Source: a virus. Taken from it: a stretch of DNA of 64,000 bases. The notes under the pieces were generated by a model. The model had not been told where the DNA came from. It searched no databases and saw only the letters and a list, made by a program, of their open reading frames with translations. The DNA is taken from the IMG/VR virus record IMGVR_UViG_3300027733_000039, positions 33,132 to 97,131 of that record, one strand, 5' to 3'. The translations under genes were made by a program, and so were the position numbers. Numbering within the stretch: position 1 is the stretch's first letter; each line of letters begins with the position of its first letter. This document shows positions 1 to 61,109 of the stretch, one piece after another.

Positions 1-20
1 TGACCGATGCACCGTGAGGA

Positions 21-44
21 CATCACGAGGTTGCCCCCGTGATG
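21..44 (-). other. RNA hairpin (GCAA loop) just after the 52..270 stop; possible terminator or processing site
   Basis: Minus strand CATCACGGGG-GCAA-CCTCGTGATG, 10-bp stem with one G-U pair. Confidence 0.45.
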
Positions 45-51
45 CTCCCGA

Positions 52-270
52 TCACGCACTGTGATCAACTGAATGGTCGTACCCCTCGGGGTACCACGCA
101 TCACCGCAGGTCGCACAGGTGTAGCCATCGGGGTATCCGATGTCCCACGCTTCAGCGAACTCCAGTGCCTTACCTTCTCGTAAGGCTTCTGCTTGGTAGT
201 AGTCGGCGCACACAAGGCACACCAATTCTCTATCGTCCATCACTTGACCAATTACGACTATGTCCCTCAT
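52..270 (-). CDS. small Zn-ribbon-like hypothetical protein
   Basis: CLVC...CATC motifs; start overlaps the stop of 267..782. Confidence 0.65.
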   Translation of the reverse strand: MRDIVVIGQVMDDRELVCLVCADYYQAEALREGKALEFAEAWDIGYPDGYTCATCGDAWYPEGYDHSVDHSA

Positions 271-782
271 GATGCACTCACCTTGAACTTGGCAACGATC
301 GCCTCAAGTAGAGGCTCACCCTGTCGGGCAGTTGCCATGTCCACACCGAGCAGTGCCGAGACTTGCTCTACGAGCGAGTCGTAGTGCGCATCTCGGTCAC
401 GCTCTTCGGTGAACGATTCCATCATGCGAATCTGCTCCTCTTCAAGGAACTCATTGAGCGACATCGTGGTGTAAACACCAGCGATGTCCTGCGGACGCAG
501 TCGGTAGTTGAGACCACTGTTCACCTTCATTGATGGAAGGCGCTCAGGAATGATGTCACCGTTGTACTGCAATCCTTGTTGACGCCCACGATCTCTTGTG
601 ATCGTGCGACCTTTCAACTTGGTGACTTTGCGGGTCTTCGTAGATGAAGTCCTCCACGAGGTGCCCACCTCCACTTGCTCTTCAAGCACTTCGTCAATGA
701 TGAAGTACCCATTGAACTTGGCGCTCATGAAGACCGCTTCGGGACTGACACTCAGAATTGCTCTGATTTCATTTGCTTTCAT
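267..782 (-). CDS. hypothetical early protein
   Basis: 171 aa ORF with CCTGAGGAGGT RBS. Confidence 0.8.
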   Translation of the reverse strand: MKANEIRAILSVSPEAVFMSAKFNGYFIIDEVLEEQVEVGTSWRTSSTKTRKVTKLKGRTITRDRGRQQGLQYNGDIIPERLPSMKVNSGLNYRLRPQDIAGVYTTMSLNEFLEEEQIRMMESFTEERDRDAHYDSLVEQVSALLGVDMATARQGEPLLEAIVAKFKVSAS

Positions 783-787
783 GGTTG

Positions 788-880
788 ACCTCCTCAGGTC
801 TTATCGTCACGACACGGGATGTGTCGCTAGTCCCCAGTGCTCATTGAAGAGCCACGCCCTAGGCGCTGGGGGAATGATCA
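788..880 (-). ncRNA. structured leader element, copy 1 (three-way junction + hairpin + RBS)
   Basis: CCCCAG/CTGGGG, CGCC/GGCG, GCTC-TTCAAT-GAGC, CGACAC/GTGTCG; covaries with copy 2. Confidence 0.65.
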
Positions 881-1396
881 GCCGTATGTGACCTCACCGA
901 GCAGGATGAACTGCACGATGGCATCAGCCACGATGGCGTCACAATCGCACTCAAACTCGTCAATGGCATTCTCACCGAACAGGTAGCACCCTGCTAGAGC
1001 GCTCACTCGCTTGACTGGTAGTTGACCGTAGTCAGGCACGCTGTCCTGATTGAACTCACCCGTGCCGATCTTCTCAATGAAGTCAGCAATGATGGACTCA
1101 CTGATCACGAGTGGCGTGCCGAAGCGGTAGAACCCGCCCCAACCGTTGAAGCCATCGTCATCGGTCAACTTCGCCAATTCGGCTTCGTCTTCCACCAATT
1201 CACACGCTTCCATGTCGTACAGAGTGACCGATGCGAAGTGTTCGTTGCCGTCCAATTCGCTTTCGCCCAGTTCCGTGCCCCATGTGTAGGTGCTGTTGGC
1301 AACCGCCCACGATGCGATCCCGTAGGAACCGCCCTCGTACGCAGTGCTCAGGATGCTTGCCCCGAGATTGAGTAGTTGTTGTCTTGTTGCTTTCAT
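878..1396 (-). CDS. hypothetical acidic early protein
   Basis: 172 aa ORF with CCTGAGGAGG RBS. Confidence 0.8.
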   Translation of the reverse strand: MKATRQQLLNLGASILSTAYEGGSYGIASWAVANSTYTWGTELGESELDGNEHFASVTLYDMEACELVEDEAELAKLTDDDGFNGWGGFYRFGTPLVISESIIADFIEKIGTGEFNQDSVPDYGQLPVKRVSALAGCYLFGENAIDEFECDCDAIVADAIVQFILLGEVTYG

Positions 1397-1402
1397 GGTG
1401 TG

Positions 1403-1490
1403 CCTCCTCAGGCATATTCACGACACTTGCGTGTCGCTAGTCCCCAGTACCGATTGAACGGTCACGCCTGAAGCGCTGGGGGATTGATCA
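1403..1490 (-). ncRNA. structured leader element, copy 2
   Basis: CCCCAG/CTGGGG, CGCT/GGCG, ACCG-TTCAAT-CGGT, CGACAC-GCAA-GTGTCG. Confidence 0.65.
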
Positions 1491-1495
1491 CGCAC

Positions 1496-1732
1496 TCAGC
1501 CGATCGTGAGCAACGCTGACAGGTACGGCAACTTGACGCCCCTGTTGGCAAGTTCGCTTGCGCAGATCTCTGCGATTGCATCCTTGATGATCTCTGAGCG
1601 GGTGTTGAGACCGTCCGATTTCTTCAGAATGTGCAGGAGTTCTGCATCGCTAAGTGCCCGTACATCGGCGCTGTAGTGAGCGATGTATTGCTCTCGCTTG
1701 CGAATGTTTGCGGGTGTGTTCTTGTATGTCAT
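1496..1732 (-). CDS. hypothetical early protein
   Basis: 78 aa ORF with CCTGAGGAGG RBS. Confidence 0.75.
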   Translation of the reverse strand: MTYKNTPANIRKREQYIAHYSADVRALSDAELLHILKKSDGLNTRSEIIKDAIAEICASELANRGVKLPYLSALLTIG

Positions 1733-2020
1733 GGTGTGTCCTCCTCAGGACTGCACTGGCAGTGAGCCAGTGGAGCGTGGTGCGCTCAATCAGGACTGGA
1801 GCGGGGGAGAACCTCCAGCCCTCATTGAGCGCCACGAGCAAGCCGAAGCAAGCCCGTGACGCTGAGGAATTTATTGAACCATGTTTTGATTCTTCAGTTG
1901 TCAGGAGCGCATGAGCGCCAAGCCAAGCAATCGGCAGAACGACAAAGAGCGACCCGAAGGTCGCTTTCCGTGTGAGCCGATTGTCAAGGAACCTGCGAAG
2001 GAAGCGGTACCGCCTTCACA
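1733..2020 (-). ncRNA. ~290-nt multi-hairpin 5' leader of the early operon
   Basis: Six consecutive stems, two with C(UUCG)G loops, directly downstream of a TTGACA promoter. Confidence 0.55.
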
Positions 2021-2023
2021 AAT

Positions 2024-2053
2024 AGTCTTCCACATGGAGGGTACATCTGTCAA
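2024..2053 (-). promoter_or_regulatory. sigma70-type early promoter
   Basis: TTGACA-N18-AAGACT with TGTG just upstream of the -10. Confidence 0.55.
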
Positions 2054-2473
2054 TAGGCAATTGAATAATTCTTGAGAATCTTTTGAGCCATGCCCCATGG
2101 GCTGGAGCGGGCTGGGGGCTGGAATATGGCGCCCCAAGCGACAGCCATCCATCGGATGGAGGAGGAGATAGAGGCATTGGAGGGTAGATCAGGAGATGCC
2201 CTGAGAAGCGTCAGGATGCGCTGTGGTGCGATGTACAGCGATATGGAGCGATGGTGCAGTGGATAGCAATACAGGCGATTGTGGGGTACGTTGTACACCT
2301 ACCTATACCCCGCATCCCCTTACCCAGCAAGGGTTATAGCCCTATTCCTAAGCCACTTAGATGCCTCAGGATGCGTTTAAACGCTGAGAACGCCTCATTG
2401 TGCCAAAACGCCTCTGCGCCTCTTAGAACGGCTTAGGAAGCGAGGGCACATGGGTGGGCACCTTGTCAACTAT

Positions 2474-2537
2474 TGTGACGAATGTCACACGATTGTTACA
2501 CATGGTGTGACGAACGACACATGTGACGAACGACACA
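2474..2537. promoter_or_regulatory. three CRP/GlxR-like palindromes, two of them a 16-bp tandem repeat
   Basis: TGTGA-CGAATG-TCACA at 2474-2489; TGTGACGAACGACACA twice at 2506-2537. Confidence 0.55.
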
Positions 2538-2659
2538 TGGGGATAAGGCGCCCCTAACTATGTTCCACAGGATGTTCCACAGATATCCACAGGCATATAC
2601 ACAGGCACCTGTGGATAACCCAGCAAAGCCTTATGGGTGATGGCGAGGGCTGTGGATAA
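2538..2659. promoter_or_regulatory. DnaA-box cluster
   Basis: Perfect TGTGGATAA at 2610 and 2651; one-mismatch boxes at 2538, 2561, 2573, 2583, 2595. Confidence 0.7.
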
Positions 2660-2796
2660 CCCCCCATGGTTAAGTGAGGGCGAACGGGTGTTCGGGGGGT
2701 AGGCTCCACCTGGCACCCGAACGGCTCCACCCAAATAGCCCCATTCCAAAATCCGACCGACCACCCAACTCGCCCAAATAGCCCTATACTTGATTC

Positions 2797-3054
2797 ATGC
2801 AAGACAAGGTAAGTATTGACCAGTTCAGGAGTGTTCTCTATCGTCCTACTCCACGTCTCAATGCCAAGATTGTTGACTACGAATTGTCTATCCGTACCCC
2901 CCAGAACTCCACTCATCACTCCATCCCACGGGAAGAACTATCGGAAATGGCACAGAACGCCGTCAATCGCTACCGTTCAGAACGTGACGCTGGTCCCGAG
3001 GGTATTGCGGATAAAAAAGCGGGAATCATTAAGTCTGCTCTGCGTCGTAACTAA
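2797..3054 (+). CDS. hypothetical protein (leaderless)
   Basis: TATACT-N6-ATG; 85 aa. Confidence 0.7.
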   Translation: MQDKVSIDQFRSVLYRPTPRLNAKIVDYELSIRTPQNSTHHSIPREELSEMAQNAVNRYRSERDAGPEGIADKKAGIIKSALRRN

Positions 3055-3071
3055 CCATCTATACTAGATTC

Positions 3072-3788
3072 ATGGCACGATACTACCGAGGTAGCAACTT
3101 CAACAGACTCAAAGAAGACGGTGACAGGGTTAACTATGTCGCTATGAGTGACAAGTACCAGAATGGTAAAGAGTCAGAAAACGGAAGCATTAAAGACGAT
3201 TATGAGGGTGGCTACCCCGTTGCTCGTGTTAAATTAAGTTATGAGCAAGGCAAAGGAACCACCCCTAACTTTGACAATAGTGAATTTACTGAAAGAGTAT
3301 ATGGTGGACATTCTGAAGAGCACTACTACCGTACTCGTGGTTCTGGTAAAGCCCCAACGGAACTGTTCCATTCTGATCCTGATCGGGTAGTAGTTGACAG
3401 CGCTTACTCACACCCAGAGATGCGTAGGCATGTTCCACATTTACTAGCCATTGCCCAAATGGATAACCCAAGTATGAAACTGACAGCATCCGATGATCTA
3501 TCAGGGTACTCCAGTAGACTATCAAAAAATGCCGCTAAGAAGGGTTTAGTCCTCCCACACCCTAATAACCCAAAAATGCATGGGGATAAAGCGGATATAA
3601 GCGCTGATTCAGATGAATACCAGCGCAGAACAATGGTGTCCGACCGTGTCATGGATGAATCAACCCGTATCCCAGAGCATGCCATCTTGAACGGTAAACA
3701 GTTTCTACGTGAAGCACTCGGTCGTAAGCCGAGAACAGAGCAGATGAAAGCACCCAAATCCGAACAATTGACACTTCCAGGGATCTAA
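3072..3788 (+). CDS. hypothetical protein, paralog of 4584..5237, possibly a degenerate GNAT-like fold
   Basis: Shares MARY, TELF, ASDxLSxxSSxLS, GKQFL and SEQLxLPGI blocks; TATACT-N6-ATG. Confidence 0.75.
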   Translation: MARYYRGSNFNRLKEDGDRVNYVAMSDKYQNGKESENGSIKDDYEGGYPVARVKLSYEQGKGTTPNFDNSEFTERVYGGHSEEHYYRTRGSGKAPTELFHSDPDRVVVDSAYSHPEMRRHVPHLLAIAQMDNPSMKLTASDDLSGYSSRLSKNAAKKGLVLPHPNNPKMHGDKADISADSDEYQRRTMVSDRVMDESTRIPEHAILNGKQFLREALGRKPRTEQMKAPKSEQLTLPGI

Positions 3789-3821
3789 GTGGCAGAAGAC
3801 CACAAGGAATAACTAAGTCTT

Positions 3822-4160
3822 TTAACCTAGTTCTTTCATAGTTTTACGCCCAAATTGGGTAATTAGACACGTTCTTGCTGGTTTACCCCTACTAGAAGTC
3901 CGTTTTCCTACTTCTTGCACGTACCCACTCTTGACTAAAGTGGTGATGTACCGCCATGGACTAGACAGATCCAGTTCGGGGAACAATTCTTGGGCGATTG
4001 TATAAACTTCTTCGTCCAACTTTGGTTTATCTATGTCAAAGCGATACGTTTCTAACAGTTTCCAGTGTGGGGTGTCACGCTCAATAACCAAAAAGGCTTC
4101 TTGATCCATATGTTCTTTGGCATTGAAGTGATGTTGGCAGTGCGGGCAAGTGGTGAGCAT
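3822..4160 (-). CDS. Zn-ribbon + winged-HTH-like DNA-binding protein
   Basis: CPHC at N-terminus; PWRYITTLVKSGYVQEVGKR..GKPA..ITQFG wHTH-like; start uncertain. Confidence 0.6.
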   Translation of the reverse strand: MLTTCPHCQHHFNAKEHMDQEAFLVIERDTPHWKLLETYRFDIDKPKLDEEVYTIAQELFPELDLSSPWRYITTLVKSGYVQEVGKRTSSRGKPARTCLITQFGRKTMKELG

Positions 4161-4223
4161 ATGTACGAAGTGTAATAGCATATTTTTTCGGTGACAACCT
4201 GAAGAACAGTCTATAATTGACCG

Positions 4224-4580
4224 ATGGCTGCACACGAGAACTTAAGCGGGCAATTGTCCATGTTCATCCCTGCACGGGAACTAATGAACTACACCGCAGG
4301 GCATACCGAGGGGATCAACAAGGACTACCTTCCATTGTCTAAGTCTCCTGGAGTCATTAGAAAGAAGTTGCAAGAATCTAAGGAAAAGTCAGCGGCAGGT
4401 CAATACTTTGTAAAAAAAGGAAAAGATAGCCTTCATGACAGTATTAGAAAAGAAGGCGTTAAAAGCCCTGTAAATTTACGTATCCGTACAAATGACGTAC
4501 AAATCAACGACGGACACCACCGACTCGTGTCAGCACACGACATTGATCCAAATATGGAAGTACCAGTAAGGTATTCTTGA
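4224..4580 (+). CDS. stand-alone ParB/Srx-like domain protein
   Basis: SIRKEGVKSPV...INDGHHRL motif; TATAAT-N6-ATG. Confidence 0.75.
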   Translation: MAAHENLSGQLSMFIPARELMNYTAGHTEGINKDYLPLSKSPGVIRKKLQESKEKSAAGQYFVKKGKDSLHDSIRKEGVKSPVNLRIRTNDVQINDGHHRLVSAHDIDPNMEVPVRYS

Positions 4581-4583
4581 GAC

Positions 4584-5237
4584 ATGGCACGCTACTTTAA
4601 AGACTTGGGTAAAGGATACGCTCATGGAGGCAGTTTCCCTGGCTACAGCGTTCTAGCCGACACCCCAGATTCAGAAGGGTATGGCGGTACAACAGTACAT
4701 GCTATGGGTTATGTAAACATGCATCACGTACCAGCCAGCGAAACCCCTAACCGCTTTGAGCCAAAGTCAGAAGGTTCATTTGACGGCAATAAAACGGAGT
4801 TGTTTACTCACACCCCTGCGGAGTTAACTGTTAACACCATGTATGCAGACAAGCGTGTCCGCCCGCATATGATGACTTTGATGGCACTTGCCAAAATGGA
4901 TCATCCTGACGCTGAGATTGTGGCGAGCGATACACTCTCTCATTTTAGTAGCAAACTTTCACAAAATGCCCACAAACGGGGGTTAGTAAAAGCAAACTAT
5001 GATAATCCTGACATGCTTTCGTCAGGTGGTTCTCGTGATTCTCACAGTGTATACACAGGGACAGTAGCAGACGCTCGTAGAGCCACAGGGGCAGACACAT
5101 GGCAAGGCATTAAAGAAATACCACATTCTGAGGTCATGGCAGGTAAACAATTCCTCAAACAGATGTTGCGACCTGGCACTACGAGAAAACAAACTCCAAG
5201 AGTTGAGTCAGAGCAACTAAAACTTCCAGGAATTTAA
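4584..5237 (+). CDS. hypothetical protein, paralog of 3072..3788
   Basis: Shared motif blocks; ends SEQLKLPGI. Confidence 0.75.
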   Translation: MARYFKDLGKGYAHGGSFPGYSVLADTPDSEGYGGTTVHAMGYVNMHHVPASETPNRFEPKSEGSFDGNKTELFTHTPAELTVNTMYADKRVRPHMMTLMALAKMDHPDAEIVASDTLSHFSSKLSQNAHKRGLVKANYDNPDMLSSGGSRDSHSVYTGTVADARRATGADTWQGIKEIPHSEVMAGKQFLKQMLRPGTTRKQTPRVESEQLKLPGI

Positions 5238-5315
5238 AGATTCTTTAGTCAAACTCTTGACAAGCAGCACACCTATGTGCCAAACTGGTATTAGGGGATA
5301 CTGTACAATAAATGC

Positions 5316-5549
5316 ATGGGCATGCAGACACCTAGAAAAGAACCAGCGAAGCCGCTGACTCAGACCGCTAAAGAGCGCATTCATAACCAAGGGTACATCT
5401 CTACAACTGTAGATAATGCTCCATCGGGTCGCCTACCTCATATCGCAGCCTTCTTTCGGGCAGTTCACCCTGATCCAAACCATTGTGAAGATTGCAAGAA
5501 TCGCAATGAACTTGCGAACATGCTGGACAACCCAGGTTCCGAATACTAA
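5316..5549 (+). CDS. hypothetical protein
   Basis: TACAAT-N6-ATG; HxxxxHCxxC motif. Confidence 0.65.
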   Translation: MGMQTPRKEPAKPLTQTAKERIHNQGYISTTVDNAPSGRLPHIAAFFRAVHPDPNHCEDCKNRNELANMLDNPGSEY

Positions 5550-5561
5550 TTTAAGCCCTGT

Positions 5562-6182
5562 ATGGCTGCGCCACTTAACCAATATTTATTTGGGGACCAC
5601 TTCAAAGCCGTTCATGGCATGACTGTTGATGAAGCCCTCTCAGGCAAGGTTGCCAAAATAAATAGCACCTTGATGTCCGCAGAAGAGTACGACGATAATT
5701 GGAAAGGCACACGTATTGGTAAAGGAATGCGCCCTTTTGCGGAAAGTCATGCTGACTTGATACAACCAACTAACGTGGGTGAGACAGTACGTTCTTGGCA
5801 AAGAAGTCCAGGTAATATACTTGTTGGTGACTCCCATCGTGTTGCTGCTGTCTTACGAGACCTTACGCAGGCTGTGCGTACTACTAGTCGTGCAAATGAT
5901 GCCCCCCTATATCGGGGAGCAACTCGTGCCCCATCAGAGGATGTTGGTGCTTCTAGAGACACCGCCCTCTCTTTTACCTCAGATAGGCATGCTGCTCGCT
6001 CTTTTACCGCTTCACAGGGGCGTGGTCGTGGAGCAATCTTTAAAGCCGCCCCAGGTTTAGTTCGTGGAGTTCCTTTAGAGGAACTTGGTGGACGACCAAT
6101 GACAGTCGGTAAAAACAGACGACCTGAAGCAGAGTGGCTCATTGATCCACAATCTGTACCAACTGAATGGCCTAAGAAGTAA
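5562..6182 (+). CDS. putative ADP-ribosyltransferase (R-S-E type)
   Basis: LYRG...LSFTS...EAEWL, the order of the ART catalytic motifs. Confidence 0.6.
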   Translation: MAAPLNQYLFGDHFKAVHGMTVDEALSGKVAKINSTLMSAEEYDDNWKGTRIGKGMRPFAESHADLIQPTNVGETVRSWQRSPGNILVGDSHRVAAVLRDLTQAVRTTSRANDAPLYRGATRAPSEDVGASRDTALSFTSDRHAARSFTASQGRGRGAIFKAAPGLVRGVPLEELGGRPMTVGKNRRPEAEWLIDPQSVPTEWPKK

Positions 6183-6577
6183 TGGCTAAAAAGAAGCACG
6201 TCCTTAACGAAGATCAACTGGCTATGTTCATCCCTGCAAAAGACCTGATGGATGCCATCCCACTAGACCAACCCGCTTCAAGAAGGCCCCTTACATTACG
6301 GAATCTTCCTGATGTTACTTCTCGTAAAGTAAAAGAAGCAAAACGAGATGGTTTGTATAATGAAATTAAAAGTGAGGGCGTACAAACGCCTATCACCATA
6401 GGACAACATCCTCTGCGTGCTAGGTCTGGTCGTGTTTACGATTACTTCCCAGGAGCAAACTACAAAGGGCCTGTTATTGAGGACGGTCATCATCGCATCT
6501 CTGTAGCAAACAGTATTGACCCAAAAATGGAGATTCCAGTAAAGTACGCCGCACCCAACGATGATCTTTCTGATTAG
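6182..6577 (+). CDS. stand-alone ParB/Srx-like domain protein, paralog of 4224..4580
   Basis: QLxMFIPA N-terminus, EGVQTPI, IEDGHHRI, IDPxMExPV. Confidence 0.75.
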   Translation: MAKKKHVLNEDQLAMFIPAKDLMDAIPLDQPASRRPLTLRNLPDVTSRKVKEAKRDGLYNEIKSEGVQTPITIGQHPLRARSGRVYDYFPGANYKGPVIEDGHHRISVANSIDPKMEIPVKYAAPNDDLSD

Positions 6578-6586
6578 AATGGCACA

Positions 6587-6760
6587 ATGCCTACGTATCA
6601 ATACAAGTGCCCCAATGGACACATACATGAAGAAGAGCGCAGTATCCGAGAAGCACAGAGCGTAGAGCACTGTCTAGAGTGTCACGAGCCTCTCAAGCCC
6701 GTGTACTACGCCCCAGCCGTCAATCTCGTCGGTCGTGGTTTTTATTCCAACGGAGGGTGA
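6587..6760 (+). CDS. FmdB-family Zn-ribbon protein (not in ORF track)
   Basis: MPTYQYKCPNGH...CLEC...GRGFYSN; TAGAAT-N6-ATG. Confidence 0.8.
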   Translation: MPTYQYKCPNGHIHEEERSIREAQSVEHCLECHEPLKPVYYAPAVNLVGRGFYSNGG

Positions 6761-6763
6761 TTC

Positions 6764-6958
6764 ATGACTAAATCGGTTATACTTAAAAGTTCTATGGTCT
6801 ACCTACTTATCACCGCCATCATCATTGCTGTACGTTACTTTCATAAGGCTCTTATGAACGCCGTTGAAGAGCATGGTCATGCGCCTGTAGAGAAGACGTA
6901 CCGAGGGTACATGTTTGACGTTCATCATGACTTTAAACGTCGTGAGCATATTAAATAA
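6764..6958 (+). CDS. small membrane protein
   Basis: One hydrophobic segment; alternative start at ATG 6794. Confidence 0.5.
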   Translation: MTKSVILKSSMVYLLITAIIIAVRYFHKALMNAVEEHGHAPVEKTYRGYMFDVHHDFKRREHIK

Positions 6959-6975
6959 TCATCTATAATCTGTAG

Positions 6976-7248
6976 GTGCAAAAACTAAATCAAATCCTAC
7001 TTCGTATCCTTGCAGCCTTTGCAGCGTCAGGTCTTGGCGTTATTGGAGCAGGCACCCTCGCAGGCGTGCAACTTTGGAAAGCCATGCTTATGGCAGGTGT
7101 TGCTGCGGTAGCCACCGTTGTAGAACGGCTTGCTCGTCTATACCTAGAAGATGGCAATCTTTCTGCTAAAGACATTGATGTTGCTTTTGGAGTAGCGGCT
7201 AAAGAAGAAACTCCAGCAAAGTTACCTGTTTCTGCAAAGAAACGCTAA
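6976..7248 (+). CDS. two-TM membrane protein (holin-like)
   Basis: Two hydrophobic helices and a basic tail; TATAAT-N6-GTG. Confidence 0.65.
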   Translation: MQKLNQILLRILAAFAASGLGVIGAGTLAGVQLWKAMLMAGVAAVATVVERLARLYLEDGNLSAKDIDVAFGVAAKEETPAKLPVSAKKR

Positions 7249-7800
7249 CTGCCAGTAATACTTGCCTACAACAGGCCATTCAATCTGGTTCTTTTCGTCA
7301 AACCATGATTTACCTTCTGGATCATTAGGTATTGCATCAAACACATTAGTAAGGTTCTTGAAGTCCAAAGAGTTCAGTAACTTCTCAACTCTTGTTTCAT
7401 GGCAGTTCCAATGATGATGTGCACCATCCCACCATTCCAAACCAGGAACATGGGTGCTAGGAACATCTAGGTGTTCCATAACTGACTCCACCATCCACCA
7501 TGGCTCTTGTCCTTCTTTCCATCGCTTAATAGTTTTATGAACGTCTGGTCCAACAACAAGCATTGGTGCATTTGGTTTAGCAATACGTTGCATGTCTTTA
7601 AGGAATGTAGATACTTCTAGCCATGGAATGTGCTCCAAGACATGACCCATGTATATGGCATCAAATGTATTGTCTTCAAAAGGGTACGGTTGACCAGGAG
7701 TTACCTTGACATCTGGTTTAGTGTCATCTGTTTCCCACGTGTCTGCGTTTACCCAACCTTGTGCGTAGTGTGTTCCACAACCAACATTTAAAAGTTTCAT
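7222..7800 (-). CDS. class I SAM-dependent methyltransferase (type 11-like)
   Basis: LNVGCG motif I; PFEDNTFDAIYMGHVLEH. Confidence 0.85.
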   Translation of the reverse strand: MKLLNVGCGTHYAQGWVNADTWETDDTKPDVKVTPGQPYPFEDNTFDAIYMGHVLEHIPWLEVSTFLKDMQRIAKPNAPMLVVGPDVHKTIKRWKEGQEPWWMVESVMEHLDVPSTHVPGLEWWDGAHHHWNCHETRVEKLLNSLDFKNLTNVFDAIPNDPEGKSWFDEKNQIEWPVVGKYYWQLAFLCRNR

Positions 7801-8561
7801 TAGACAGTGCCTCCATCAATTGGGAAATACCAGCCACCACCATGTTGTAACGCTGTTGGCATATCATGTCGGTGATTAACTCCTGAGTAATGTGCGATTA
7901 AAGACTTACGCACCATTCCTTCAATCTTTGGTTCGGAACCACGGTGCAACAAACGACCATGCCAAAAAAGAACATCACCTCGTTTTGGAAGATATGTAAC
8001 AACTTCTGCATTGCGCTTTTCAATCTCTGCTTCAAACAATGGAGTTAATATGCGCTCACTATATTTAGGCCAGCGATGGTCTTGTTCTTCTGGTGAAAGC
8101 GCTGCAAGGATCTTTTCTCGTGTAACCACGGGCCAACGGTGTGATCCAGGGATGAATTGAAAAGGACCAGAATCAGGATGTATATCTTCTAAAGCAATCC
8201 AAATAGCGGCGTAGTAGTCACCCACGTGCTCAGGATTAAGGTAGGTGTCTTGATGCCAATTACGACGAGTTGTTACCCAACCCGTTAGGTTTAAATGGAC
8301 AGCCGCTGGTTCACCAATCAAACGCTCTAGCGTGTCATTAATGTTGTGATGCGTCAGGATGCTCATTACTTCTGGGTGACGGCGATATGGGGTGCAATCA
8401 GGCCAGCCACCAGGTCGGTCTTCATTATGCTCAATCCAGCACTGCTCATAAGCAACTAATAGATCTTCTGGAAGAAAGCCTTTCTTAATAACAAACCCAT
8501 CGTCATTCCAATCGGCTGGTCCTGGTGTTGGTGCTGGGATAGTTAATTCGGCTAGTTCCAT
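7800..8561 (-). CDS. PhyH-family 2OG-Fe(II) dioxygenase
   Basis: WHQD, WIALED..DSGP..IPGSH, GDVLFWHGRLLHRG; start moved to ATG 8561. Confidence 0.85.
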   Translation of the reverse strand: MELAELTIPAPTPGPADWNDDGFVIKKGFLPEDLLVAYEQCWIEHNEDRPGGWPDCTPYRRHPEVMSILTHHNINDTLERLIGEPAAVHLNLTGWVTTRRNWHQDTYLNPEHVGDYYAAIWIALEDIHPDSGPFQFIPGSHRWPVVTREKILAALSPEEQDHRWPKYSERILTPLFEAEIEKRNAEVVTYLPKRGDVLFWHGRLLHRGSEPKIEGMVRKSLIAHYSGVNHRHDMPTALQHGGGWYFPIDGGTV

Positions 8562-28489: not shown

Positions 28490-29065
28490 ATGACAAAAAT
28501 GACCTGGCCTGTAGTCCCAATCAAATTCTGTGAACACCTTAAAGGCAAGAAGCCTTCGGAAATCACCCCAGCAATGCTTCGCAAATTGTCGTGTGGTGGT
28601 CAACTGCACCATTGCGCCGCCCGTGCTTTTGAAGCAATGAAGGCAGCCGCAGCAGTTGATGGTGTTGTCTTGGCTCCGACTAGCGTCGGTGACACTTTTA
28701 GAAGTATTGGCGCCCAAAAGGCAGGATTCCTACAAAGATTTCAGTTAGAAGTTATTCCAGGTGCCCAGACACGCACCTATGACGGCAAGACGTGGTACTT
28801 GAAGAAAGGCATGGCAGTGCTTGCCAGCCCAACAGATGACGCCGCTAAATGTTCAAAGCACATGCTTGGCATTGCCATTGATATTGCTAACACAGGCAAC
28901 AAGAAGATCATGGATTGGCTATTGGCTAACGAACAGAAGTTTGGTTTTAGTCATGAAGTTGTAGATATGCCAGGCGCCGAGAGTTGGCACATTCGTTTCA
29001 CTGAGGGTCAGGCTATGCCACAATCCGTTCTTGACTACGAGGCAACACTTCCTCCAAAGGCGTAA
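28490..29065 (+). CDS. M15 (VanY-like) Zn peptidase, probable endolysin
   Basis: FRS..Q, SKH..GIAID, ESWH motifs; TAAAAT-N6-ATG. Confidence 0.8.
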   Translation: MTKMTWPVVPIKFCEHLKGKKPSEITPAMLRKLSCGGQLHHCAARAFEAMKAAAAVDGVVLAPTSVGDTFRSIGAQKAGFLQRFQLEVIPGAQTRTYDGKTWYLKKGMAVLASPTDDAAKCSKHMLGIAIDIANTGNKKIMDWLLANEQKFGFSHEVVDMPGAESWHIRFTEGQAMPQSVLDYEATLPPKA

Positions 29066-60866: not shown

Positions 60867-60912
60867 AAAGTACCTTATCCTTCTTTGTACAGGGTTTTTA
60901 CCATTGTAGCAA

Positions 60913-61003
60913 TTAGGAGGAGGGCTAGTTTGACACGGACGCAGGTTGAAAGGAGGGAAAGACCTGCGCTCTGTAAACCCTGAGGAGGTTGCCCTCCCCC
61001 TAA
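60913..61003 (-). ncRNA. candidate anti-Shine-Dalgarno hairpin RNA
   Basis: 13-bp closing stem, 7-bp apical stem, unpaired AACCUCCUCAGG and CUUUCCCUCCUUUCA; TATAGT -10 at 61020-61015. Confidence 0.55.
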
Positions 61004-61109
61004 CGCTTATCATCACTATACAGCACCAAGTTAAGTGATGGTGCCGTATAGTGGTGTGGACAGTGTAGCATGGGCAACCCAATGTTGAACAACCTGAGGA
61101 GCGTAATTA

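Follow-up and report, generated by a model that had tools for sequence, protein, structure and literature searches.

Introduction

In animal mitochondria the tRNAs themselves mark the sites at which transcripts are cut, the tRNA punctuation model, and a tRNA-like domain is carried by tmRNA. The bacterial Y RNAs (YrlA) are partial tRNA mimics (Chen et al. 2014, PMC4201824), and in plant mitochondria RNase P and RNase Z generate mRNA ends at the t-elements, which fold like tRNAs and keep a conserved T arm (Forner et al. 2007, PMC1920247). Repeated intergenic elements of other kinds have been described in phages: the PeSL cassettes of T4-like phages combine an early promoter with a terminator stem-loop (Arbiol et al. 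2010, PMC2839356; Comeau et al. 2014, PMC4122927), and the SAS/ESAS elements of Cluster K mycobacteriophages contain a 13-bp box, GGGATAGGAGCCC, that includes a Shine-Dalgarno (SD) sequence and lies 3-7 bp before starts, about half of the boxes being preceded by a 17-bp inverted repeat of unknown function (Pope et al. 2011, PMC3203893). For ESAS there is little support for RNA hairpins, since departures from the repeat are not compensating (PMC3203893). Here we analyse a repeated RNA leader found in a 64,000-nucleotide stretch of viral DNA (hereafter the window, the whole stretch analysed), which is bases 33132-97131 of a 97,131-bp record rated complete (IMGVR_UViG_3300027733_000039). Two copies lie on its minus strand, at 780-877 and 1394-1487. 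Their shared core, a 48-nt three-way junction, represents a new structured-RNA family, well supported by its covariation across about 80 uncultured viral contigs.

Results

Both elements stand in gaps between neighbouring open reading frames (ORFs), copy A between ORF 1496-1732 and ORF 878-1396 and copy B between ORF 878-1396 and ORF 267-782, and each folds alone, at minimum free energy, into helices P1 to P5. The outer stem P1 (CCCCAG/CUGGGG) encloses two hairpins, P2 with a 3-nt loop and P3 with the loop UUCAAU; P4 is a separate hairpin, and P5 a small one whose loop, UGAGGA, carries most of the SD. In copy A the junction spans 1442..1481 on the minus strand and consists of P1 (1476-1481 with 1442-1447), P2 (1472-1475 with 1465-1468, loop 1469-1471), a U-G linker (1463-1464), P3 (1459-1462 with 1449-1452, loop 1453-1458) and an unpaired A (1448), with the conserved flanks C 1482 and A-C 1441-1440. 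A few nucleotides past it follow P4, CGACAC-GCAA-GUGUCG (1421..1436), and the SD-presenting P5, UGCC-UGAGGA-GGCA (1401..1414), ahead of the start codon at 1394-1396. Copy B, on the same strand, repeats this plan: junction at 832..871, P1 (866-871 with 832-837), P2 (862-865 with 855-858, loop 859-861), U-G linker (853-854), P3 (849-852 with 839-842, loop UUCAAU 843-848), unpaired A (838), flanks C 872 and A-C 831-830, P4 as CGACAC-AUCCC-GUGUCG (810..826), P5 as GACC-UGAGGA-GGUC (787..800) and start codon at 780-782. These features are assigned from sequence and fold, with covariation added for P4. The core pieces of the two copies have fold z-scores of -2.5 and -3.1. Two covariance models were used, R1 of the full leader and R2 of the junction only; copy A scores 70.8 bits with R2 and 112.9 bits with R1, copy B 71.9 and 100.2 bits.

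A preliminary description of the window had read in these copies TGATCA, an outer stem CCCCAG/CTGGGG, a short hairpin (CGCC-TAG-GGCG in one copy, CGCT-TCA-GGCG in the other), TTCAAT between stems GCTC/GAGC or ACCG/CGGT, then ACTAG, CGACAC-loop-GTGTCG with the loops ATCCC and GCAA, and finally CCTGAGGAGG with ATG. All of these letters are present there on the minus strand, and the minimum-free-energy fold of each copy reproduces the architecture exactly. The two genes served, ORFs 878-1396 and 267-782, are indeed consecutive, and the label "early" given to them is suggested by their position.

Pattern scans of the viral collection gave the loci L003-L092, one of ten 17-mer matches (L007) being due to chance. 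With R1 we obtained 65 strong copies, 59 of them distinct, from 20 sources. Across these 59 full leaders 99.7% of cells pair, compared with 72.1% after shuffling and at most 44.6% in slid controls; 17 of the 22 pairs change on both sides, among them all six of P4, and the covariation score is 0.624 versus 0.154. R2 extends the family to 139 copies in 82 uncultured viral sources, or 105-107 distinct rows, depending on the treatment of two partial matches, of which 96.7% of cells pair versus 73.8% when shuffled (covariation score 0.528 versus 0.133). Because both alignments had been fitted to their models, the count was repeated on a structure-blind MAFFT alignment of 64 distinct cores, where pairing reaches 96.8% versus 76.5% and the covariation score 0.485 versus 0.125; RNAalifold, unaided, predicts the same three helices and junction. 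The sequences are related, many being copies within one genome, so the shuffle counts are not to be taken as probabilities; more robust support comes from the slid controls, in which at most 49% of cells pair across the alignments, and from the many pair types seen at each position. The preliminary description had taken compensatory change as a sign of selection on structure; two copies alone were insufficient for that, and the covariation of the relatives bears it out. Roughly 60 cells of the junction alignment are G.U and would read A.C in the complementary strand, and every copy points the same way as the genes; from both we infer that selection acts on the RNA fold and not on duplex DNA.

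Conservation within the junction was counted over 105 distinct sequences, and about 20 bases are invariant. In the P3 loop, UUCRAU, the letters U, U, C, A and U at positions 1, 2, 3, 5 and 6 are each present in 105/105, and position 4 is A in 102 and G in 3; the first five letters equal the tRNA T-loop consensus UUCRA. The T-loop likeness remarked on in the preliminary description has thus grown stronger with more copies, variation being confined to A/G at the consensus purine. Conservation extends to the linker (U23 in 105/105, G24 in 104/105), to A40 between P3 and P1 (102/105) and to P2, with an invariant C11-G22 pair, a U-N-R loop and G19 after the loop in 105/105. Two of the outer C-G pairs of P1 are invariant and one is kept in 97/105; C4 precedes P1 in 96/105, and A47 (102/105) and C48 (105/105) follow it. 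The remaining stem positions vary freely, with pairing kept. With junction strands of 0, 2 and 1 nt the element is almost fully paired; in about half of the copies P3 is one base shorter on its 5' strand, and U23-A40 and G24.A39 can replace the lost layer.

The conserved unit is this 48-nt junction, and the rest of the leader is lineage-specific. Of the unit of about 90 nt proposed in the preliminary description, the CGACAC hairpin and the CCTGAGGAGG box belong to the window lineage only. There the junction is followed by ACU(AG), the 6-bp P4 with a loop of 3 to 5 nt, a short A-rich linker and P5 (NNCC-UGAGGA-GGNN), with the SD box NNCCTGAGGAGGNN 4-7 nt before ATG; pairing of the two P5 layers outside CC/GG is kept in 53 and 48 of 53 copies (shuffle means 40 and 24, maxima 45 and 34). 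A second, larger set of contigs has the same junction, then a small GAAA-loop hairpin or none, then a 20-30-nt A/C-rich linker and a different SD (GGGGA or AGGGA). Over 108 distinct leaders the median distance from junction to start codon is 43 nt, the linker is 38% A and 13% U, and a stable hairpin is present in 95, starting 1-2 nt after GGGAC+2 in 94. In leaders of the second lineage (e.g., L046, L052, L059, L077) the 5' flank and beginning of P1, UUCCCC, are complementary to the leader's own GGGGAA-type SD, and in some of these leaders the SD repeats letters of the P1 3' strand, AGGGAC; this may reflect an SD/anti-SD interplay or a coincidence of G/C-rich motifs.

Placement is equally regular. 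An open frame of at least 40 aa ending at most 60 nt before P1 precedes 118 of 137 copies, an SD and an ORF follow 130 of 137, and the upstream stop lies mostly 4-20 nt before P1. Stops in two to three frames occur within 30 nt of P1 in 40 of the 50 distinct flanks, versus about 27% of stop-containing random 30-mers; staggered stops such as TGAgTGAgTGA (e.g., L010:13699-13795, L021:269-365) give the impression of a universal cassette end. Downstream ORFs group into 20 families in the full-leader set and 51 in the wider set, nearly all small proteins of unknown function, and no informative families were found among the flanking proteins. Within a record all copies are clustered and co-oriented on the coding strand: 2-4 in three complete 95-97-kb, myovirus-like relatives, 7-8 in two fragments and one each in four complete 38-40-kb phages. 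Occurrence as a single copy in these complete small genomes suggests that the junction has a function of its own.

The leader-rich block, flanked by conserved backbone, holds the same gene families in different orders and combinations among relatives. In L004 gene family F25 is directly followed by F2, whereas L006 has three further cassettes in between, with elements at the borders of each; the one leader at this place in L004 combines the junction that follows F25 in L006 with the linker and SD hairpin that precede F2 there. In these sequences, then, the repeats bound shuffled gene cassettes. The junction travels no more clearly with one neighbouring gene than with the other: identical cores make up 2.9% of pairs sharing an upstream gene and 4.1% of those sharing a downstream gene, against a background of 0.6%. 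Cassette shuffling is not the primary function, because the small phages carry a single copy. In related DNA (likeness 85%) contig breaks and loose ends fall near 820-874 and 1418-1461, a weak hint only, because repeats break assemblies.

No described RNA accounts for the junction in our searches. Rfam 15 gave no match in the 64 kb at gathering thresholds, in keeping with the preliminary description, which recognised no known Rfam family; known self-cleaving ribozymes were likewise unmatched. At E up to 10 the first 3 kb returned only chance snoRNA and miRNA rows at E of at least 1, and no tRNA, tmRNA or tRNA-like match, and ARAGORN found no tRNA or tmRNA gene in the whole genome. Against deposited phage genomes BLAST gave no match for the 3-kb region and, for the junction alone, only chance partial matches at E of at least 2. 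A scan of about 185,000 prokaryote species, each represented by one genome, gave no match to the junction pattern, and there is consequently no prophage or host lead from cellular genomes. The window phage, from lake water, encodes a tail sheath, a T4-type tail tube and baseplate, an SPP1-type portal and a terminase, together with a family A DNA polymerase, RecA, a DnaB-like helicase, two WhiB genes and an SNF2 helicase at most 35% identical to those of cultured phages. Its genome also holds a SpoVS-like protein, ferritin-like and 2OG-Fe(II)/TauD/PhyH oxygenase-type proteins and eight glycine-rich-domain proteins; among the families listed from a proteome sweep (25 of 48) there was no tRNA-processing enzyme. 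WhiB is encoded by all four complete small (38-40-kb) carriers, and among 14 control genomes only Corynebacterium matched it, as expected of an actinobacterial marker; being WhiB-encoding, the carrier phages therefore probably infect actinobacteria. The stretch is found almost whole in five freshwater-metagenome DNA runs, two of them possibly its source.

Around the two elements, all on the minus strand, the leftward block begins with ORF 1496-1732 (78 aa, no family), whose stop (1496-1498) lies 14 nt before P1 of copy A and whose own leader (1733-1772) contains a hairpin and, at 1738-1751, an SD hairpin, but no junction. Copy A serves ORF 878-1396 (172 aa, phrog_2355, unknown function), with its stop (878-880) 6 nt before P1 of copy B, and copy B serves ORF 267-782 (171 aa, no Pfam family), which belongs to the commonest downstream family, 10 loci with a junction before every one. 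The other gaps of the block in this genome contain different hairpins, and the linker, SD hairpin and ATG are as in the elements. GC content is 51-57% in this leader-rich block (window 1-3000), 42-50% in the neighbouring 3000-8000 and 46.7% in the genome. Upstream of the block a stretch of about 1.2 kb (~1733-2950) without a convincing gene is probably its regulatory region; within it, at 2474-2537 on the minus strand, a tandem pair of TGTGTCGTTCGTCACA and one TGTGACATTCGTCACA, three operator-like 16-mers in all, adjoin a TTGACA, and their half-site GTGTCG has the same letters as the P4 stem.

Two further loci share letters with the leaders. At L028 8560-8640, minus strand (genome ~28,560-28,640, outside the window), TGATCATT, AGTAGCGAC, ...CACCATC and a P2-like GCGC-TCG-GCGC are found in common with them; this stretch is without P1 and P3 and closes with ATC where the leaders have ATG; at most it is the relic of a decayed leader. 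At 60903-61010 of the window, minus strand, and also in L094, L095 and L096, lies a conserved structured locus with two boxes: ACCUCCUCAGG, which complements the CCUGAGGAGGU box of the leaders exactly, and CUUUCCCUCCUUUC, identical in letters to the 16S rRNA 3' end. Four complete genomes have exactly one opposite-orientation copy of CCTGAGGAGG each, about 28-38 kb from the leaders (circular permutation allowed for), versus none in a reversed-pattern control; read in the antisense orientation, both boxes are invariant, and compensatory changes occur in the stem that separates them. The locus is a candidate trans-acting anti-SD RNA that could be directed against the P5 loops, which would explain the invariance of the 10-nt box in the window lineage.

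Discussion

From the fold, conservation, placement and strand of the junction, all directly observed, we infer recognition by tRNA enzymes, cut sites and effects on stability: plausibly, though tentatively, the junction is an anticodon-less miniature tRNA used as a punctuation mark for processing of the RNase P/Z type, an option that the preliminary description had named as well. It would work in cis, as an RNA module inside a polycistronic phage message, with P1 as its acceptor stem, P3 and the UUCRAU loop as its T arm, and P2 as a stub replacing the D arm. Host tRNA-end enzymes would recognise it and cut between cistrons, RNase P on the 5' side and, 3' of P1 past A47 or C48, RNase Z or an enzyme like it. 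The upstream piece would then end in a compact fold resisting 3' exonucleases, and the downstream piece would start with 2-4 free bases and continue into P4, shielding its 5' end; a hairpin near the 5' end is known to protect bacterial mRNAs. Past P4 the ribosome would meet an unstructured A-rich landing linker and then the SD, presented in the window lineage in the P5 loop. At the DNA level the repeats double as crossover points for gene cassettes.

In favour of tRNA-like punctuation are the covarying RNA fold, the T-loop letters, the intercistronic placement, the hairpin right after the junction, the lack of promoter and terminator signals, the single copy in complete 38-40-kb phages, the absence of tRNA genes from the phage and the precedent of the plant-mitochondrial t-elements (PMC1920247). 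P1 and P3 contribute six and four Watson-Crick pairs; were C4.A47 and G24.A40 to stack as well, 7 + 5 = 12 layers would result, as in the acceptor/T stack of tRNA. Several points weigh on the other side, beginning with the two assumed non-canonical pairs that this count needs. The proposed cut sites are read from the fold; the sole RNA-library run gave one 258-nt contig (1516-1773), outside both elements and possibly DNA carry-over, and contigs cannot show RNA ends. At 6 nt the P3 loop is one short of the seven in tRNA, and the pair that closes it is variable (G-C 47, A-U 34, C-G 25), unlike G53-C61 of tRNA, so that of the canonical T arm (5-bp stem, G53-C61, 7-nt UUCRANY) P3 matches the first five loop letters, UUCRA. 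The U-N-R loop of P2 is too small for a canonical D-loop, there are three helices only, none of them an anticodon arm (the P2 loop is 3 nt), no CCA is encoded, and the element escapes both ARAGORN and the Rfam models of tRNA, tmRNA and tRNA-like RNAs.

The main rival, itself possible if less probable, dispenses with tRNA enzymes and sees in the junction a structured insulator, stabiliser or protein-binding site, which might block exonucleases, keep the ribosome-landing linker from pairing with upstream coding RNA, or bind a phage or host protein through its invariant loops. A stable, conserved, intercistronic fold next to a hairpin and an A-rich linker is what this account expects, and a 6-nt loop with a variable closing pair fits a specific protein site as well as it fits tRNA mimicry. 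A mere barrier, however, needs neither some 20 invariant bases nor an exact UUCRA with purine-only variation, and no candidate binding protein was found among the flanking or genome families examined.

That the junction is a translational switch or standby site is improbable. Here the C-rich 5' strand of P1 (UUCCCC) would pair with the SD, which folding of the junction would free and unfolding mask, for example when a ribosome terminating 4-20 nt upstream unfolds it; alternatively, a tRNA-like elbow would contact the ribosome. The complementarity of UUCCCC to the GGGGAA-type SD of the second lineage, a stop codon within ribosome-footprint distance of P1 and the constant tie of the element to a start codon speak for such control. 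Yet in the window lineage any pairing of CCCCC with GGAGG contains a mismatch, six base pairs formed across 40-60 nt would be far weaker than P1, and the invariant loops are left unexplained.

A DNA-level role, with the elements mainly recombination cassette boundaries in the manner of T4 PeSL and the fold secondary, seems quite unlikely to us. The permuted gene order, the three-cassette indel between L004 and L006 with its chimeric leader and the staggered stops in 40 of 50 flanks would follow from it; compensatory changes and G.U pairs, on the other hand, show selection on the RNA fold, and a single copy in a complete 38-40-kb phage has no recombination partner. We give similarly little weight to a bolder pair of ideas, in which the junction either founds a new class of small RNAs that cleave themselves or is excised as a mini-tRNA acting in trans on host tRNA-binding factors; if either were true, phages would build natural "insulator parts" (cutter, cap hairpin, ribosome-binding site) between early genes. 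Slighter still is the chance of a new small self-cleaving ribozyme as a natural insulator before the hairpin and ribosome-binding site, a layout that recalls the synthetic RiboJ part. It would suit a small motif with about 20 invariant bases, lying between phage genes with a hairpin directly 3' and matching no known family, but the junction strands of 0, 2 and 1 nt leave little room for an active site, the invariant bases sit mostly in hairpin loops, and nothing resembles known ribozyme cores.

Least probable of all is a role as a signal in transcription, be it as promoter, as intrinsic terminator or as a put-like RNA modifying RNA polymerase (put RNAs being two-stem structures as well): the operon is probably early, but there is no fixed -10, TANNNT (the actinobacterial -10 form) is depleted in linkers (11/108 versus 23 expected), no hairpin is followed by a U-run and no linker has TTTT, a sigma-70-type promoter and terminator scan gave chance-level counts with no site inside the elements, and up to 8 copies stand in one operon, always intercistronic and not at its start. 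The put-like antitermination raised in the preliminary description is disfavoured on the same placement, never at the operon start in this window; a put-type antiterminator has one promoter-proximal copy per operon, and here the operon's first leader is without a junction. Other candidates were discarded. A DNA cruciform or dimer-binding palindrome is ruled out by the G.U cells, the P4 loops of 3-5 nt and the restriction to the coding strand; a hammerhead suggested by CUGAGGA was rejected, as those letters are the SD; and an N4-type hairpin promoter for P2 was dropped, the phage being sheath-tailed with no sign of an N4-type system.

With 105 distinct copies, covariation in all helices and about 20 invariant bases, the junction adds a structured-RNA family found so far only in uncultured WhiB-encoding phages. 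If the tRNA-like reading is true, the logic of organelle tRNA punctuation would reach bacterial viruses, and a 48-nt acceptor/T-arm stub would suffice to mark cut sites. Taken whole, the leader strings together stops in several frames, the junction, a cap hairpin, an unstructured linker and an exposed SD. It is nature's equivalent of a synthetic expression insulator and could serve as one in actinobacteria, and its repeats offer a concrete mechanism of cassette shuffling in actinophage early regions.

Set beside the known systems, the junction resembles the t-elements, which are also tRNA-like folds with a T-arm motif inside long transcripts beside coding regions (PMC1920247), but theirs is a 7-nt GGTTCRANYCC T arm within a fuller cloverleaf, whereas the junction has a 6-nt loop, a variable closing pair and no anticodon arm; moreover, t-elements are mitochondrial and cut by RNase P and RNase Z, and in the bacterial virus such cleavage is only proposed. 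With YrlA and the tRNA-like domain of tmRNA it would share an acceptor-like stem and T arm devoid of anticodon function, and an occurrence in actinobacteria and their phages; those RNAs, in contrast, are free-standing, have canonical 7-nt T loops and possess Rfam models of their own, none of which matches the junction. SAS boxes and P5 alike place an SD box a few bases before the ATG of non-structural genes in actinobacterial phages, and GGG-AUAGGAG-CCC is laid out much as NNCC-UGAGGA-GGNN; the layout is thus analogous, although the box here is NNCCTGAGGAGGNN and not GGGATAGGAGCCC, and ESAS has an unrelated sequence, with no junction and no T-type loop, whereas every helix of the leaders covaries. 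PeSL cassettes are likewise short repeated elements among small variable genes, crossover points for cassette gain, loss and swap (PMC4122927), and the junction elements, too, bound indels and swaps in a plastic region; unlike PeSL, they contain no promoter or terminator signals, and their core is a covarying three-way junction. On the sequences compared, the element would be best classed as akin to two known kinds at once, tRNA-like processing marks and repeated phage regulatory cassettes.

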